Source: an uncultured Gammaproteobacteria bacterium
Lineage (GTDB): Bacteria > Pseudomonadota > Gammaproteobacteria > DRLM01
Assembly (NCBI GenBank): GCA_947259075.1
Contig: CAMYKQ010000053.1
Span: forward strand, 3,846-67,845
DNA: 64,000 bases
Reading direction: 5' to 3'
Shown: piece by piece, positions 14,940 through 49,690 of the stretch
How positions within the stretch are numbered: position 1 is the stretch's first letter
Layout: each line of letters starts with the position of its first letter
Position numbers and translations under genes: made by a program
Notes under the pieces: generated by a model
The model's input: only the letters and a program-made list of their open reading frames with translations
Told to the model about the DNA's origin: nothing
Database searches by the model: none

Positions 14940-15896
14940 ATGACCGCGACGTTTTATCGAGACTTGCCTCATGACATCACCGTCATCGACACCGGCTATC
15001 ATCGCCCGGGGTTTGATGCCAGTTATTTAATGCGCGCGGGCGCGGCGGCGGCCTTCGTCGACGTGGGCACTGCGTTCTCCGTGCCGCGGCTATTGCAAGT
15101 GCTCGCGGAGAAAAATATCGCGCGCGAACAAGTGCACTATGTGATGGTGACCCATGTGCATCTCGATCACGCGGGTGGCGCCGGGGTGTTGCTGCGGCAG
15201 CTGCCGCATGCGCGCTTGGTGGTACACCCGCGCGGCGCGGCGCATATGATCGATCCCGCCAAGCTGATCGCCGGGGCGGCGGCGGTGTACGGCGAGACGG
15301 AATTCATGCGCCTCTACGGTGAGATCGCGCCCATCTCCGCGCAGCGGGTCATCGAGGCCGCGGACGATTGGCGCCTGGATTTCAATGGCCGCGAATTAGT
15401 GTTTCTCGACACGCCGGGGCACGCGCGCCATCACTATTGTATTTACGACGCAAGCAGCCGCGGCATATTCACTGGCGACACCTTCGGTTTGTCGTATCGT
15501 GAATTCGATAGCGCGAATGGCCCGTTTATTTTTCCCACCACCACGCCGGTGCAGTTCGATCCCGAGGCGCTGCATGCCTCCATCGACCGCTTGCTGAGTC
15601 TGCAAGCCCAGCGCCTTTACCTCACCCACTACGGTTGCGTGCAAGACCCGCCGCGCCTCGCCGCGCGTTTGCACGAATTGATCGGCCAGTTCGTTGATTG
15701 CGCGCGCGCGGTGCAGGAGACCGGCGCCGCGCGGCAAGCGGCATTGGAGCAGGGCGTATTGCAAATCTTGCTGCGGGCGTTGACCGCGCATGGCTGTGAA
15801 TTGCCGCGAGCACGCGCCGCGGAATTACTGGCGGTGGATGTGCGCCTCAATGCCCAAGGTTTGGCGGTGTGGCTGGAGCGGCAAGCCAAAAGCTGA
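14940..15896 (+). CDS. MBL-fold metallo-hydrolase
   Basis: THVHLDHAGG, TPGHA.HH, FTGD, THYG. Confidence 0.9.
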   Translation: MTATFYRDLPHDITVIDTGYHRPGFDASYLMRAGAAAAFVDVGTAFSVPRLLQVLAEKNIAREQVHYVMVTHVHLDHAGGAGVLLRQLPHARLVVHPRGAAHMIDPAKLIAGAAAVYGETEFMRLYGEIAPISAQRVIEAADDWRLDFNGRELVFLDTPGHARHHYCIYDASSRGIFTGDTFGLSYREFDSANGPFIFPTTTPVQFDPEALHASIDRLLSLQAQRLYLTHYGCVQDPPRLAARLHELIGQFVDCARAVQETGAARQAALEQGVLQILLRALTAHGCELPRARAAELLAVDVRLNAQGLAVWLERQAKS

Positions 15897-43672: not shown

Positions 43673-44290
43673 ATGGTGCGCAAAACCAAATTCGAGACCG
43701 CGCAGACGCGGTTGCAAATCATCGCCGCGGCGCGCGAGGTCTTTGCCGAGCGCGGCGTCAGCCGTACCACCTTGGCGCAGATCGCCAAGGCGGCGGGCGT
43801 CACCCGCGGTGCCATCTACTGGCACTTCAAAAACAAGCCGGACTTGTTCTTCGCCATGCTGGAGCAGGTGTCCCTGCCCTTCATCGACCGCATCGACGAA
43901 ACCCTGCCCGAGGAAAATCCGGGTGACCCGCTGCGCGGGGTGCAAGCCAGCATGAGTGAAGTCCTGCGGCTGCTCAAAGAAGACATGGTCGCACGCACCA
44001 CCTTCGAGATCGTCGTCCTGAAATGCGAATATGTCGATGAATTCGCCTCGCTGGATATCCGCGTCAACAAAACCGGCTGCGCCTTCGTGCAAAAAATGAT
44101 AGGCGCCTACAGCGATGCGAAAAAACGAGGATTGCTGCGCGAGGGCATCGATCCGGCCCAGTGCGCCCTCGACAGTTATATATTTATAAAAGGGATAATT
44201 CAGCTCTGGCTTTCCGACACGGACGGCAGCCTCATCCGCGGCAAGGCGCAATCCCTGATCGACGCCCACATCGCCATGCGCTACAAATAA
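43673..44290 (+). CDS. TetR family regulator (AcrR-like)
   Basis: MVRKTK..A..TR, GVTRGAIYWHFKNK. Confidence 0.92.
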   Translation: MVRKTKFETAQTRLQIIAAAREVFAERGVSRTTLAQIAKAAGVTRGAIYWHFKNKPDLFFAMLEQVSLPFIDRIDETLPEENPGDPLRGVQASMSEVLRLLKEDMVARTTFEIVVLKCEYVDEFASLDIRVNKTGCAFVQKMIGAYSDAKKRGLLREGIDPAQCALDSYIFIKGIIQLWLSDTDGSLIRGKAQSLIDAHIAMRYK

Positions 44291-44462
44291 TTTCGCGCGC
44301 GAAGACCCGGGCGCGCAAAAAAAGCGGTCCCAGCTTGGGCGCGCGGAGCAGGGCGAAGCGACGGATTCCGCCGGATGCCTGTTGGGATTCGAGGCACAAA
44401 ATGGGCCACGCTTAACTGAACACGGCGCGCACCCACCCCCCGTTTAATTTTGAAGCCAGGCG

Positions 44463-45194
44463 CTAGCTGAAATCACCCCAGCGCGTCAGCAGGGCGGCGA
44501 GCGCCGCCAGCGCCGCGGTTTCGGTGCGCAGAATGCGCGGACCTAAACGCAGGCCGGTATAGCCCGCGCCTTTGGCGAGATTGATTTCTTGCTCGCTCAA
44601 GCCGCCCTCGGGGCCGACGAGCAGGGTGACGGGTCCGGTGGGAGTGGCGAGCGCGTTGAGTTGGGTGTCCGCTTGCGGGTCGAGCACCAGCGCCAGGCCC
44701 GTGGCGGTCTCGGCCAGCCAATCGCGCAGCGGGCGCGGCGCGGCGATCTCTGGCACGCGATTGCGGCCGCATTGTTCACAGGCGCCGCTGACGACGGCCT
44801 GCCAGTGCTGCACGCGTTTGTCCAAACGCTCACCGCTCAATTGCACGCCGCAGCGCTCGGTGAATAAAGGGATGATGCGGCTCACGCCCAACTCCACCGC
44901 CTTTTGCACGGTGTAATCCATTTTTTCGCCGCGCGAGACGCCTTGCGCCAGCCACAGTTCGAGCGGCGGCTCGCGTCCGGTGGCGTGAAAGGCGCCGACG
45001 CGGACGCTGACATGGCGCTTATCCACGCTATCGATGACCGCTTCGAATTCACCGCCCTCGCCGTTGAACAAAATCAGCGGCGCACCGACCGGCAGACGCA
45101 ACACGCGCGCGACGTGGTTGGCGGCCTTATCATCGAGCAGCACGCTGGCGCCGTGGCCGAGGGGAGCGGGATGATAGATGCGCGGGATTCTCAT
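44463..45194 (-). CDS. rsmE: 16S rRNA m3U1498 methyltransferase
   Basis: H..RVLRL, QKAVELG, EQCGR, GPEGG, LG.RILRTETA. Confidence 0.95.
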   Translation of the reverse strand: MRIPRIYHPAPLGHGASVLLDDKAANHVARVLRLPVGAPLILFNGEGGEFEAVIDSVDKRHVSVRVGAFHATGREPPLELWLAQGVSRGEKMDYTVQKAVELGVSRIIPLFTERCGVQLSGERLDKRVQHWQAVVSGACEQCGRNRVPEIAAPRPLRDWLAETATGLALVLDPQADTQLNALATPTGPVTLLVGPEGGLSEQEINLAKGAGYTGLRLGPRILRTETAALAALAALLTRWGDFS

Positions 45195-45454
45195 GGGGTG
45201 GGGATTATAACGGTGAAAGCGTCTACGGCCTATCGCGGTGCGATTAGACAGCGCATTTTTCAGCCGTCATCGTCGCTGCGCTTTATTGCCGCGTCCTGCG
45301 CGCACGTACTCAATTTATGGCTCGATGAACGCCAAGAATTAAAAGATCGTCATCCGTATAGTGGGCTATTGCCGGTCGTTGAGAATGCAATTTCTGCTTG
45401 CGTTTTCACATCATCGTAGCGATAGCGCGGCGTGGGTGCAGCGCATCATGGTGG

Positions 45455-45496
45455 CCTCATGCGGCGGATCGTCCTGCCGGCATCCGCCGCATGAGG
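45455..45496. repeat. Perfect 15-bp inverted repeat
   Basis: CCTCATGCGGCGGAT / ATCCGCCGCATGAGG. Confidence 0.7.
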
Positions 45497-45659
45497 GCGT
45501 GATATTACGTTGCGAATGTACCTGCTTGTCGGCGTCATAATGTCCCGGGGTCACTTGATTCTTCACGGGGAAACAGCCGGCGGAACGCCCGTTGGGCTTC
45601 CGCCCTGCATGGGCTACCCTTTATTTTTCACTATTATTTCTCACACCCTGCGCGGCTTA

Positions 45660-45763
45660 ACCACCCCGTCGGCTGCGCCGCCACCCCTCCTTGGCAAGGA
45701 GGGGATCGCTATTTTTTTCTCCCCTCCTCCTCGAGGAGGGGTGCCCCGCAGGGGCGGGGTGGT
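45660..45763. repeat. REPIN-like doublet of palindromic repeats
   Basis: ACCACCCCG..CCCCTCCT..AGGAGGGG followed by its inverse ending CGGGGTGGT. Confidence 0.75.
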
Positions 45764-45900
45764 GAGGTCGCGGCGATGAGCGTGAGTTGGATAATGAAAG
45801 TCCCGAAGCCGCGTAGAAGAAAGTACCTCGCCCGCGGGGGCGAGACCCCGTATTCAATACAATGGGTCGGAGATGGCGCGACATTAAGCCATGGCTTCCA

Positions 45901-45942
45901 CGATCGATGCGGTTCATTGCATTCGCCGCATCCTACGGGCTC
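45901..45942 (-). repeat. GTAG-family REP, left copy
   Basis: Minus strand reads GTAGGATGCGGCGAATGCAATGAACCGCATCGATCG. Confidence 0.8.
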
Positions 45943-45944
45943 TC

Positions 45945-45990
45945 GGAACGAGCAGCGCTTTTTGCTGTCCCCTGGAGCTATTTGTTAAGC
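45945..45990 (-). mobile_element. Truncated integron attC (left arm only)
   Basis: Minus strand GCTTAAC(RYYYAAC)-AAATAGCTCCAGGGGACAGCAAAAAGCGCTGCTCGTTCC overlapping the gene's 3' end. Confidence 0.6.
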
Positions 45991-46865
45991 GATTTTTCAT
46001 ATTGCTCTAAATGCTCATAGAAATATCCATGCAAAATGGCATACCTGAAGGCGAGCTTTGAATTCTGCGCCTCTTGATGTATTTCCAGTTGTTCATCTAT
46101 GAAAGACTTTGCGCGATCGTAAATTACATCATCAGCACCACCCATCAGATGATTTCGGAAGAATTTTCCCAAATAGCTAACAATCACTCTTCCATCAAAA
46201 TCCCGCGCAAGCATATTCAAACTCGCCTCAGCCATTTTCTTTGTTATTTGACACTCGAAGTCATTTTCATTGCATTCTGTTTTCGCATGTCCAAGTAGGT
46301 AATTTAGAACCTCATCTGAGACCACAACACGCGGATATTGAGCCACATATGATTCGAGCTCATAAGCATCTGCTATAGCTTTCCCATAGAGTTCATTTTT
46401 ATGTAACTCGGCTGCCACCCCTATTGACACGCCGATGCGAACTGGCCTCTTTTTAGCCAGTCCTAGCAAGCACAATCCTCCACACGCCGCCAATGCGCCA
46501 TAGACCCCTTTTGAGGGGGAATACTGCTCATCTATTCGTAGTGGCACATAAATAACCAATCCATCAGAAAAATGCTGAAATTTAATTTCTGCTTTATTTA
46601 GCTTATTAAAACCCGACAGTGCATTTAGTGGGTTGTTCTTTTCATTCTTTGTGAATGAATTAAAATAGTCAGAGGCAGTTTTTTGTAAATCATAGACAGC
46701 GCCAACAGTATCCTTAACCACCTGAACGAACTCGGAATATTCAGGCCCATTCTCGTCACTTGGCAAGGCATCAAGCTTCCTTAGCCTTTCTCTTTGACCA
46801 AGCAAATCAACAAATGCCACTAAGTAATGACCAAATGTGAGCGTGTCGTCCTTTGATTTTCTCAT
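45978..46865 (-). CDS. AT-rich hypothetical protein with degenerate class III nucleotidyl cyclase-like motifs
   Basis: AFVDLLG, FSDG, VRIGVSIG, YG.AIADAYELES..A.YPRV. Confidence 0.7.
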   Translation of the reverse strand: MRKSKDDTLTFGHYLVAFVDLLGQRERLRKLDALPSDENGPEYSEFVQVVKDTVGAVYDLQKTASDYFNSFTKNEKNNPLNALSGFNKLNKAEIKFQHFSDGLVIYVPLRIDEQYSPSKGVYGALAACGGLCLLGLAKKRPVRIGVSIGVAAELHKNELYGKAIADAYELESYVAQYPRVVVSDEVLNYLLGHAKTECNENDFECQITKKMAEASLNMLARDFDGRVIVSYLGKFFRNHLMGGADDVIYDRAKSFIDEQLEIHQEAQNSKLAFRYAILHGYFYEHLEQYEKSLNK

Positions 46866-46888
46866 CGTCTTTTTCGCTTAACGTTGAA

Positions 46889-46928
46889 GAGCTCGTAGGA
46901 TGCGGTGAGGCACGAACCGCATCGATCG
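46889..46928 (+). repeat. GTAG-family REP, right copy (inverted relative to the left copy)
   Basis: GTAGGATGCGGTGAGGCACGAACCGCATCGATCG. Confidence 0.8.
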
Positions 46929-46989
46929 AGTTCAATAGATTCATTCCACGCCGGCGAGTGTTATCCTTTCGCCGCCACCCCACATTCTT

Positions 46990-48354
46990 TCATTCTTCAG
47001 TGGCAAACCGTATCCCTGCCCACGCCGCTTCCGCCATCAGTTGTATTTCTTCCGGCGTGATGATGTAAGGCGGCATGAAATAGACTACGTTACCCAGCGG
47101 CCGCAGCAGCACGCCTTTTTCCAAGGCATGTTGATACACGCGCAGGCCGCGGCGTTCTTGCCAGGGGTAAGGCTCGCGCGCTTTTTTATCTTTCACCATC
47201 TCGATGGCGACGATCATGCCGCGCTGGCGCACTTCGGCGACGTGCGGGTGCTCGGCGAAATGCGCCGTGGCCGCGTGCATATGCGCGGCGAGGGCGCGAT
47301 TGCGGACGATGATGTCGTCTTGCGCGAAGATGTCGAGGGTGGCCAGTGCGGCGCGGCAGCCGAGCGGGTTGCCGGTGTAGCTGTGCGAGTGCAGAAAGGC
47401 GTTGAGTTTTTCGTAGTCGTCGTAAAACGCCTGATAGATTTCCTCGCGGGTGAGCACGGCGGCCAAGGGCAGATAACCGCCGGTGAGGCCTTTGGAGAGG
47501 CACATGAAGTCCGGCGTGATGCCGGCCTGCTCGCAGGCGAACAGCGTGCCGCTGCGGCCGAAGCCCACGGCGATTTCGTCGGCGATAAGGTGGACGCCGT
47601 ATTCATCGCAGGCGGCGCGCAGTAATGTCAAATACACGGGGTCGTACATGCGCATATTGCCGGCGCATTGCACCAGCGGTTCGACGATGACGGCGCAGAC
47701 CTCGTCGGCGTGCTGCGCCAGCGCGCGGCGCATGTGTTCGAACATGCGGGTGGAATGTTCCGCCCAATCGCTGCCCGGCTCTCGCGCAAAGCAGTCGGGC
47801 GAGGGCACGGTGATGGCCTGCATCAATAAGGGTTGGTAGATTTCTTTGTAGAGCGCGACGTCGCCCACCGCCAGCGCGCCGAGGGTCTCGCCGTGGTAGC
47901 TGTTGCTCAGGCTGATGAATTTGGTCTTGCACGGCGCGCCGCGATTGCGCCAGGTGTGAAAGCTCATCTTCAGCGCCACCTCCACCGCGGAGGAACCGTT
48001 GTCGGCGTAGAAACAGCGCTTGAGGCCGGGCGGCGCCAGCGCGGTGAGGCGTTCTGCGAGTTCGATCGCGGGTGTGTGGGTGAAGCCCGCCAGCAGCACG
48101 TGTTCCAGATTTTCCAATTGATCGCGCAGCGCGGCGTTGATGCGCGGATTGGCGTGGCCGAAGAGATTCACCCACCACGAGCTGATGGCGTCGAGATAGC
48201 GCTTGCCGTCGAAGTCTTCCAGCCACACGCCCGCGCCGCGGCGGATGGGGATGAGCGGCAGGGTTTCGTGATCCTTCATTTGCGTGCAGGGGTGCCAGAG
48301 CACGGCCAGGTCGCGGGCCATCAGGGCGGCATTCGTGTGTTTGGCGGCGGGCAT
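46990..48354 (-). CDS. bioA: Adenosylmethionine-8-amino-7-oxononanoate transaminase
   Basis: WHPCTQM, SSWWVN, YHGET, DEIAVGFGR, SKGLTGG, LRPLG. Confidence 0.95.
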   Translation of the reverse strand: MPAAKHTNAALMARDLAVLWHPCTQMKDHETLPLIPIRRGAGVWLEDFDGKRYLDAISSWWVNLFGHANPRINAALRDQLENLEHVLLAGFTHTPAIELAERLTALAPPGLKRCFYADNGSSAVEVALKMSFHTWRNRGAPCKTKFISLSNSYHGETLGALAVGDVALYKEIYQPLLMQAITVPSPDCFAREPGSDWAEHSTRMFEHMRRALAQHADEVCAVIVEPLVQCAGNMRMYDPVYLTLLRAACDEYGVHLIADEIAVGFGRSGTLFACEQAGITPDFMCLSKGLTGGYLPLAAVLTREEIYQAFYDDYEKLNAFLHSHSYTGNPLGCRAALATLDIFAQDDIIVRNRALAAHMHAATAHFAEHPHVAEVRQRGMIVAIEMVKDKKAREPYPWQERRGLRVYQHALEKGVLLRPLGNVVYFMPPYIITPEEIQLMAEAAWAGIRFATEE

Positions 48355-48440
48355 CCGTGTCGGCTGTATGGGTTGTGGGCAGGCGCGCTAGGTTAGCACA
48401 GCGCCCGCGCCGTGGCGGCAGTGACAACAAGGATAAAGCG

Positions 48441-48535
48441 TGTCGGGATTATTTACAGGCTGGCGTGACGGCCGCTTGCGGGATCATTAAAGCCGTTTAA
48501 AAAAAGCAGCTTAACGAGTTGGCAAGCATGTTGCT
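48441..48535 (+). promoter_or_regulatory. TGT-N11-ACA enhancer plus sigma-54 promoter (PEP-CTERM regulon type)
   Basis: TGTCGGGATTATTTACA at 48441-48457; TGGCAAGCATGTTGCT at 48520-48535. Confidence 0.75.
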
Positions 48536-48691
48536 ATTACCCTGTCGCGGATGTATCGCGCCGGTTGCCCGGTCTAGGGTAACCACTAAAGCCTTCCACG
48601 GATGTACCTCAAGGATGTATCTCTCTATGTAATGGGCGACGGACCCCCTGCTTTGCGCGTTGTTTGGTTTCACAAAGCATTGGGATAATTC

Positions 48692-49690
48692 ATGATCAAG
48701 TCGCTGTTATTTTCCACCGCCATTTTGCTGGGCGTGAGCGGCACCGCCGCCGCGGCGCCGCTGTTATTGGAAGGCAATTTCATCCGCGTCACCATCGGTG
48801 ATGACGGCACCTTGGGTAATGGCTACGGGCCGGAACCGGGTTTGCTGTACGACGCCACGGGTTCACGCAATTTCACCGGCGATGATTTTCTCAAGCCGGG
48901 TTTTCCCTGGGAATTCTTCACGGTGAAGGCCAACGAGGTCGGCGTCACTGGCAACAATAATGACACTGATTTTTGGATGCGCGATTTCCGCTTCAACTTG
49001 ATTGAGGATTTGAGCGGCCAGCAGGGTTTCGACCGGCATGTGCGTTGGCTCGGCACCAGTGAATCGATGCAGTTGAGTAACGATTTCTTTTTCAATGACG
49101 ACGATCAGTCGATTCAAGTCCGCACGACCATCACCTCATTATTGGATCTCAGCGGTCTGCGTTTCGCGCGCAGCATCGACCCCGATCAAGACGTCGAAAC
49201 GTACGGCGATTATGAAACCCGCAACGGCCGTGGTTACGACGCCAATGGTGATGGCGATTTCGGCGGCGCGGGTGACGTGGCGCCGCAAAACTGGGTGCAT
49301 GCGCAAGGCGCGCGCAGCGGTTTGAGTGTGGGGCTGTACTCGGATTCACCCTATGCGCACGACACCGGCGTTTCCTACGATTGGCTGCTCGATCCGGATT
49401 TCTTTCTCGCCGGCATCGATGAGGGCGATGGCGATAATGCCTTGGGCATAGGCTTTAATCTCGGGGATCTGGCGCGAGGGCAGTCGGTTTCATTTATGTA
49501 TGCCTACGTCTTGAGCGCCAGCCTGGGCGGCGCGCAATTCCCCGTGCTTGGCGCGCAGCGCGAGGATGAACCGGCGGAGAGTTCTTTGTCCGTCAGCAGC
49601 GTCCCCGAGCCGGGCACGCTGATCTTGATGAGTTTGGGGGTCGCGGCTTTGGGGGTTTTCACCGGGCGCAGGGCGCGCAATAAAACATAA
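48692..49690 (+). CDS. PEP-CTERM sorting domain protein
   Basis: Signal peptide; DPDQD and DANGDGD acidic loops; VPEPGTL + hydrophobic helix + RRARNK. Confidence 0.9.
   Translation: MIKSLLFSTAILLGVSGTAAAAPLLLEGNFIRVTIGDDGTLGNGYGPEPGLLYDATGSRNFTGDDFLKPGFPWEFFTVKANEVGVTGNNNDTDFWMRDFRFNLIEDLSGQQGFDRHVRWLGTSESMQLSNDFFFNDDDQSIQVRTTITSLLDLSGLRFARSIDPDQDVETYGDYETRNGRGYDANGDGDFGGAGDVAPQNWVHAQGARSGLSVGLYSDSPYAHDTGVSYDWLLDPDFFLAGIDEGDGDNALGIGFNLGDLARGQSVSFMYAYVLSASLGGAQFPVLGAQREDEPAESSLSVSSVPEPGTLILMSLGVAALGVFTGRRARNKT

Follow-up and report, generated by a model that had tools for sequence, protein, structure and literature searches.

Integron cassettes are mostly studied in arrays, and the route by which they become ordinary chromosomal genes is poorly documented. 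A cassette presents a GTTRRRY-type core before its open reading frame (ORF) and a complementary RYYYAAC core (R'') after it. In 2024, Loot et al. reportedly described, in Nat Microbiol, the integrase-mediated insertion of cassettes at non-classical genomic attG sites. Clusters of attC sites lacking a nearby integrase (CALINs) were described by Cury et al. (2016), who add that a single attC site may be what remains of a genetically degraded cassette and that secondary sites on the chromosome are open to cassettes (PMC4889954). Insertion by the integrase at secondary or attG positions in the genome has been reported before (PMC4889954, PMC12901181, PMC12614218). Another group of hairpin-based elements is formed by the repetitive extragenic palindromes (REPs), and the pertinent papers describe REP, REPIN (REP doublet forming hairpins), and REPtron systems that work with a REP-associated tyrosine transposase (RAYT) or TnpA-REP (PMC8266576, PMC3116915, PMC3337134). 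In one of these papers, TnpA-REP and the integron integrase IntI are compared by analogy only (PMC8266576), and a further source presents group IIC-attC introns as mobile elements that home to attC hairpins (PMC3001079). Our literature searches found no report of a link between REPs and integron cassettes. Here, we describe a 295-aa ORF (the cargo ORF) located between two inverted GTAG-footed REP hairpins on contig CAMYKQ010000053.1 of an uncultured gammaproteobacterium (assembly GCA_947259075.1); the window, as used below, is the whole 64,000-nt stretch of DNA that was analyzed. We think it fairly likely that this locus holds a solitary integron cassette, stranded and degenerate, which would be an element of a known kind in a decayed state, with an unusual REP bracket. 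We favor this reading because homologues of the gene occur in cassette arrays, the core sites match, the genome contains both an IntI and arrays, and the locus is empty in relatives.

The cargo ORF has the layout of an integron cassette, a single gene between complementary cores (Table 1). GTTAAGC precedes it and GCTTAAC, complementary to GTTAAGC at 7 of 7 positions, overlaps its last codons; a preliminary description of this DNA, made from the sequence by itself, had placed both cores and the start codon correctly. It had also called the ORF AT-rich, in agreement with a GC content of 0.34-0.485 across it (200-nt windows, 46000-46899) compared with 60.2% for the 3.10-Mb genome. A homologue at locus L071 (64% identity) offers a parallel, with GTTAAGC, 10 nt, and ATG at its start; GCTTAAC lies at its stop codon, and an intact 78-nt attC of 42 bits comes next. 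Core sites and offsets are identical to those of the cargo ORF.

Judged from the loci of its homologues, the gene family is typically cassette-borne. Of 1271 candidates, 145 are related to the cargo protein at E ≤ 0.001, and no Pfam domain was found in any of these; 122 homologue loci were available, 42 from species genomes and 80 from metagenomes. For attC detection we used R1, a purpose-built covariance model with 18 pairs and 28 seeds (homologue-adjacent attCs and the array on contig C36 of the present genome). RNAalifold gave no consensus on the seed alignment, and the structure was therefore set by hand and verified by pair counts: 82.3% of the cells are paired compared with 71.0% in shuffles, and 0 of 500 shuffles equaled the observed covariation. 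Detection based on minimum free energy was too strict (16, then 36, of the 122 loci) and served seed choice only. At E ≤ 0.1, R1 returned 97 matches (25 + 72) in the homologue loci, all on the strand of the homologue. A match is present in 50 of the 122 loci; it lies directly 3' of the homologue in 41, including 18 from loci without seeds, and at least two matches occur in 22, which places the homologues in cassette arrays. The metagenome contigs L080 and L098 contain complete integrons, with intI upstream on the opposite strand. In L080, the homologue, which has the cyclase fold discussed below, is preceded by four attC matches and followed by two.

The genome itself has integron equipment at its disposal. 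As the preliminary description had noted, neither an integrase nor a RAYT gene lies in the window, and this extends to the whole contig; both are present on other contigs. The integron integrase (TIGR02249, 461-462 bits versus a cut-off of 265) is encoded at C23:3044-3985 (locus L005), and its frame stays open for ~100 codons upstream of the family match. Contig C23 is 4313 bp long and shares its last 127 nt, letter for letter, with the end of C22, and attI and the first cassettes fall outside the assembly. The genome's own attCs lie on C36, C63, C41, and C49. At C36:1-2812 (L010), a minus-strand array of four cassettes directly follows a core gene with no adjoining integrase, the arrangement of a CALIN; in its fourth cassette, R' and R'' are complementary. 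At the site occupied by the cargo ORF, rsmE and bioA are adjoining genes in G001 and G002, which belong to the same genus, and in G008, G009, and G004. The gap between the two matches is 286 nt in G001, 118 nt in G002, and 102 nt in G008 versus about 1850 nt at the cargo locus, and no REPs or other repeats were found in the spacers of these relatives. The body of the ORF was matched in none of 40 other genomes, the sole match on the ORF spanning its last 23 nt. The gene is, in other words, absent from the same locus in relatives. Three observations that would speak against a cassette were not made: attC similarity is not lacking, homologues do occur in arrays, and the gene is not syntenic in relatives without REPs.

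The borders of the element are asymmetric. The cassette-derived DNA appears to span 45945-46882, with a 5' border that reads as a canonical integrase boundary (G|TT). The 3' border falls inside the attC, 46 nt past the start of R'', and is taken not to be an integrase product, since the attC is cut mid-site; the attC-like left arm that stops, as first described, is borne out by a stretch that folds no better than its shuffles. Half-site attC profile hidden Markov models built from R1's seeds were run over both strands of the window. Among these 128 kb of strand, the best match to a 5' half (R'' and L'') is a 24-nt segment at 45990-45967 (E 0.41) and the best match to a 3' half (L' and R') lies at 46892-46877 (E 3.7), so that the window's best half-attC matches coincide exactly with the 3' and 5' ends of the cargo ORF. 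An attC in genome G029 serves as a positive control, as its 5' half is 94% identical to that of the locus and continues to a proper L' and R' (34.2 bits). Four metagenome runs (X1-X4) held at most 0.11 of the sampled words and are uninformative on habitat or absence. Two of them hold short contigs of near-identical cassettes that mark the borders: the first 64 letters of a 255-nt contig from X2 match 46820-46883, with no further piece listed on the stretch, and a contig from X3 matches the 3' end of the ORF and, by eye, continues to about 45945 before departing from the extension of the left REP. REP-only matches with unrelated flanks in these runs start at 46895. The linker between the right REP and R' also pairs in the extended palindrome of that REP (-12.6 kcal/mol, z -3.5).

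Table 1. Features of the cargo locus (positions in the 64,000-nt window).
Feature	Position	Strand	Remark
Cargo ORF, class III nucleotidyl-cyclase-like fold and C-terminal helical domain	45978-46865	-	From predicted structure
R'-type core GTTAAGC, putative cassette 5' boundary	46876-46882	-	Exact inverse of R''; ATG (46865) 10 nt later
Truncated attC: R'' GCTTAAC (45990-45984), 5-nt spacer, L'' arm GCTCCAGGGGAC, loop	45945-45990	-	No matching L'/R'
12-nt linker GAGCTCTTCAAC (minus strand) between REP_R foot and R'	46883-46894	-	Similar to an attC 3' end
REP_L, hairpin, CCTAC foot, and GGGCTCTC extension	45901-45944	+	Foot toward cargo ORF
REP_R, GTAGG foot (46895-46899) and hairpin, stem as in REP_L	46895-46928	+	Foot toward cargo ORF
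MITE-like (miniature inverted-repeat transposable element) double-hairpin repeat, abundant	45648-45775	.	Start of the module ending in REP_L; outside the cassette
Module segment with terminator-like hairpin (45846-45825)	45776-45900	-	Common to C25 and C36; related pieces in G001 and G003

Several results weigh against this account of the locus. No complete, foldable attC is present at the cargo ORF. The full R1 model, with filters off, gives 8.5 bits at the 3' end (45931-45990, minus strand; E 6.9 over the window) and 11.9 bits at the 5' end (46876-46936, minus strand; E 1), compared with 31.8-48.5 bits for real attCs in the same genome and 19-72 bits for those in homologue loci, and the 3' stretch folds no better than its shuffles (z -0.53). 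R1 is distinct from the model of IntegronFinder and is weak on long or unlike attCs: the third attC of C36 reaches 18.4 bits only, and an attC recognized by eye on C47 falls outside its 6 matches at E ≤ 1. In addition, insertion by an integrase would leave a whole attC, so that a later deletion must be assumed. No empty REP pair was found in 40 relatives, nor any joint across 459xx-468xx in the four metagenome runs, and for this reason the insertion target is one that we infer. Standard attC detection would itself probably miss a cassette with a halved attC.

The hairpins that bracket the ORF appear to be genuine REPs of a low-copy variant, because a RAYT gene on another contig is flanked by hairpins with this loop and foot. 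Both are GTAG-footed imperfect palindromes repeated in extragenic DNA, with their feet toward the cargo ORF as originally described. In the left one (REP_L), the stem GATGCGG/CCGCATC occupies 45906-45912 and 45926-45932 and the CCTAC foot ends at 45936. REP_L and the right REP (REP_R) share an identical outer 15-mer, as had been pointed out, of which the 3.10-Mb genome contains 4 copies versus 0.0 expected, and a second common inverted arm (21 nt, 90%) spans the feet. Copies of the 15-mer with at most one mismatch lie on C25, C30, C36, and C50 in addition to the two at the locus, and there is a degenerate copy on C20. Counted by its GATGCGG stem, the variant is low-copy, with 3 perfect and 4 degenerate copies (C20, C25, C30, and C50). 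The genome has four Y1-transposase matches, none on the contig of the cargo ORF. The RAYT gene at C29:70677-71018 has hairpins on both sides with the same TTCATTTCATTCA-type 13-nt loop and CCTAC foot, and with the stem GTTGGGC rather than GATGCGG; the GATGCGG variant flanks no RAYT. A constant loop and foot with a changed stem is the pattern to be expected of a REP family with compensatory stem change. The congener G003 carries 97%-identical REP copies, either single or as feet-outward doublets. The raw count of hairpins plus CTAC (102) was not above that for control tetramers (79-271), and only stems seen at least two times were therefore used in the genome's catalogue. The clearer doublets in this catalogue have their feet outward and spacers of about 60 nt. 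REPINs consist of inverted REPs about 60-70 bp apart, and the bracket is not one of them because its feet point inward across 958 bp; the earlier remark that this orientation is the opposite of the normal one holds. REP_L also forms the end of a ~300-bp module (45648-45941), copies of which lie at C25:19925-20221 (87.5% identical) and at the start of C36.

In the account that we favor, the cassette would have been drawn from an integron pool, plausibly the genome's own, and the integrase would have placed it at a non-classical genomic GTT site, giving the exact 5' junction. The cassette would later have lost the 3' half of its attC where it meets the left REP module, and could then no longer be excised. 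An attG or secondary-site route accounts for the 5' junction, and the halved attC means that the extra deletion is needed, as the whole attC that such an insertion should leave at the 3' junction is not found.

The preliminary description had proposed instead that the cassette was captured into, or moved by, REP-associated recombination. An integron-type cassette and true REPs survive from that proposal; REP recombination as the mover is a less likely candidate. In this explanation, REP clusters would be capture sites at which a cassette or array fragment is joined to REP-flanking DNA by single-stranded hairpin recombination, either through template switching or breakage at the hairpin or with a free 3' end, stalled in the attC hairpin, as the acceptor for strand transfer by a REP-associated transposase. 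We consider it unlikely for the cargo locus, where the evidence holds no enzyme or junction signature of such an event and the 5' junction is exactly of the integrase type, even though the cassette's attC is cut mid-site exactly where the REP unit starts. It gains from a published in vitro result, in which TnpA-REP linked cleaved REP DNA to foreign 3'-OH ends (PMC8266576), and from the recurrence of cassette-REP junctions elsewhere. The C36 array ends ~95 nt past its last attC in the same REP module that forms the left flank of the cargo locus, at the contig start, and on C63 the 5' end of one cassette, which has a 36.5-bit attC, directly adjoins a REP unit. At C47:14705-15841, a lower-GC ORF of 181 aa (15010-15555) has feet-inward REPs of the CCCGGAT family on both sides; by eye there is a complete attC upstream, and the ORF's own R'' is complementary to the upstream R', with an L'' that runs into the REP-adjacent motif AACGCGCGTAAGGCGG, the same cut as at the cargo locus. 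C47 was found by inspecting REP pairs and is thus not an unbiased count, and its junction is not at a CT dinucleotide, which the TnpA-REP paper gives as the cutting site of these transposases (PMC8266576). A neighboring repeat copy was considered as an empty site for C47 and set aside as only suggestive, as its downstream REP family differs. The cargo beside the same module on C25 was also considered as a cassette and was not counted, as it has no attC match and small ORFs only.

Two homologues in other genomes are bracketed likewise. Those at L028 (74% identity) and L061 (37% identity) lie between REPs of a third family in the same orientation, with a REP foot 7 nt after the stop in L028 and an adjoining RAYT remnant in L061, where the order at L061:3472-4920 (Gammaproteobacteria metagenome-assembled genome contig VBWC01000019.1) is REP, RAYT remnant, REP, homologue, REP. 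The third family has two copies in the present genome too. In the remnant, only the last ~50 residues match a RAYT, and its front is replaced by other repeat-derived sequence. When 120 other homologue loci were scanned for inverted repeats on their flanks, only these 2 proved to have such brackets (L054 has a different flanking inverted repeat, of 78 nt), and 17 of 19 attC loci in relatives are without a REP-like hairpin, the exceptions being G003:C73 with three hairpins and G010:C4 with one lone match. Low-GC DNA is more frequent at the foot of REPs than behind them: among 55 family-level REPs with both flanks readable, GC below 50% was found on the foot side of 12 and the hairpin side of 3, against a background of 5.0% of 300-nt windows, a count inflated by feet-outward REP doublets; contig ends, for their part, are enriched in repeats. 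The RAYT genes on C11, C29, and C39 have AT-rich DNA next to them, and the adjacent REPs are among these 12. A non-random link between cassettes and REPs is plausible, as junctions recur at C36, C63, C47, L028, and L061. The broader proposition, that REP clusters and cassettes are mechanistically linked in this lineage through single-stranded DNA hairpin recombination (by a RAYT, or by the integrase acting on DNA beside REPs) that would lodge cassette fragments between REPs, put a REP in place of the attC's 3' half, and so turn mobile cassettes into fixed, REP-bracketed genes, seems doubtful to us.

It is also conceivable, if quite improbable, that the REPs came later, with the cassette already in the spacer and the REPs or the ~300-bp module inserted or recombined beside it, removing the 3' half of the attC. 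REP_L could have arrived by recombination between module copies, since the module that it terminates recurs at C25 and C36, and at least four further repeat families are present in the spacer, where that of the relatives is repeat-free. Set against this are the orientation of both feet toward the ORF and the common extension past the foot (GRGCTCT), which suggest a cognate pair, as well as a report that recently acquired DNA is REP-poor in fluorescent pseudomonads (PMC3390384). Finally, there is very little chance that the cargo ORF is an ordinary horizontally acquired gene with 7-nt inverse cores by accident: a pair of 7-mers by itself is weak evidence and there is no significant full-length attC match, but the identical cores with an intact attC at L071, the 24-nt half-site that is the best of the window and so close to the attC of G029, and the attC directly after 41 of 122 homologues all argue for a cassette.

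The cargo protein is probably a divergent class III nucleotidyl cyclase, an assignment drawn solely from the predicted fold. The AlphaFold model of the cargo protein, built with 34 sequences, has a mean pLDDT (predicted local distance difference test) of 87.6 and a pTM (predicted template modeling score) of 0.87. Foldseek returned 84 matches in the PDB at E ≤ 0.001, and those listed are adenylyl, guanylyl, uridylyl, or cytidylyl cyclases. The likeness covers residues ~10-200 (Foldseek probability 1.00, E 7e-5 to 4e-4, target TM-score 0.47-0.67, 13-17% identity), and the model thus has the cyclase-homology fold. Comparisons at the level of sequence tell against the assignment. Only 1 of the 34 family members touched PF00211, at an E of 0.13 that falls short of the threshold, so that membership by sequence was not obtained, and a sequence-profile search of the PDB with the cargo family gave nothing below E 0.088. 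Thirty alignment columns are invariant, including D20, D101, and R143, two Asp and one Arg in strand-end motifs. Judged by motif, D20 and D101 would be the metal-binding aspartates and R143 a phosphate-binding arginine of this fold; the usual Asn/Arg pair of class III cyclases is presumably replaced in this protein. Pfam, PADLOC, and NCBIfam have no family for it, and the nearest named cluster in a protein atlas is adenylate/guanylate cyclase at 0.86, which is a lead only. The family spans Nitrospirota to Proteobacteria. The protein probably works as a single-gene enzyme, because a cassette gene travels alone, and a role in nucleotide signaling or defense is a guess.

The cargo ORF is flanked by bioA (46990-48354, minus strand) and rsmE (44463-45194, minus strand). 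It would probably be expressed by read-through from bioA, ending at the hairpin terminator of the module; this is the likeliest route because the interval from bioA to the ORF lacks a promoter-like site and REP_L is followed by a terminator-like hairpin. An Rfam scan of 44000-49000 at E ≤ 10 gave chance microRNA-type matches only and no attC-like family. The spacer between rsmE and bioA is ~1.8 kb here versus roughly 100-290 bp in relatives, growth that is mostly due to repeats of at least four families besides the REP. The double-hairpin repeat at the start of the module has CCCCTCC...GGAGGGG twice; many contigs carry it, with dozens of copies in all that are 75-96% identical, and it is present in congeners too. 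It is separate from the REP family and far more abundant. Two more hairpin repeats lie at 45434-45610; the one at 45578-45606, a REP of the GGCGGAAC type, recurs in exact form on C17 and C21.

The locus gives one end state of the passage from cassette to chromosomal gene at base-pair resolution, in which the 5' integrase boundary appears to be kept, the attC is halved, and the gene stands behind a housekeeping gene. If the meetings of a cut attC with a REP foot, at four loci in this genome and two homologues elsewhere, do reflect a mechanism, then two hairpin-based DNA systems that have so far been compared by analogy would be tied to each other, and REPs would gain a role in the domestication of foreign genes. 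The cargo family, with its predicted cyclase fold and no Pfam family, is a candidate for functional testing.

Compared with known systems, the cargo protein shares the fold of residues ~10-200 with class III cyclases, including the Pycsar synthases of cyclic UMP and cyclic CMP (PDB 3r5g, 1ybt, 7r65, and 8jsf). It differs from them in its 13-17% identity, its lack of a Pfam match, an extra helical C-terminal domain of ~100 aa, and the absence of an effector gene beside it. Group IIC-attC introns show that hairpin-seeking elements are drawn to attC sites; the cargo locus differs in that it has no intron or reverse transcriptase and the neighbor is a REP. Its REPs resemble those of known REP systems in being GTAG-footed, extragenic, imperfect palindromes, and the genome has a RAYT flanked by REPs with the same loop and foot. 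In canonical REPINs, however, the feet point outward about 60-70 bp apart, whereas here they point inward with a gene between them. The locus is like an attG insertion in that a solitary cassette sits in a chromosomal spacer with G|TT at its 5' junction and, possibly, GTT in the target, and unlike one in that a whole attC would be expected there and L' and R' are missing. It resembles CALINs and isolated or degraded cassettes in that the cargo cassette lies away from intI while the genome encodes IntI elsewhere, yet it differs from these in keeping half an attC only, boxed by REPs.

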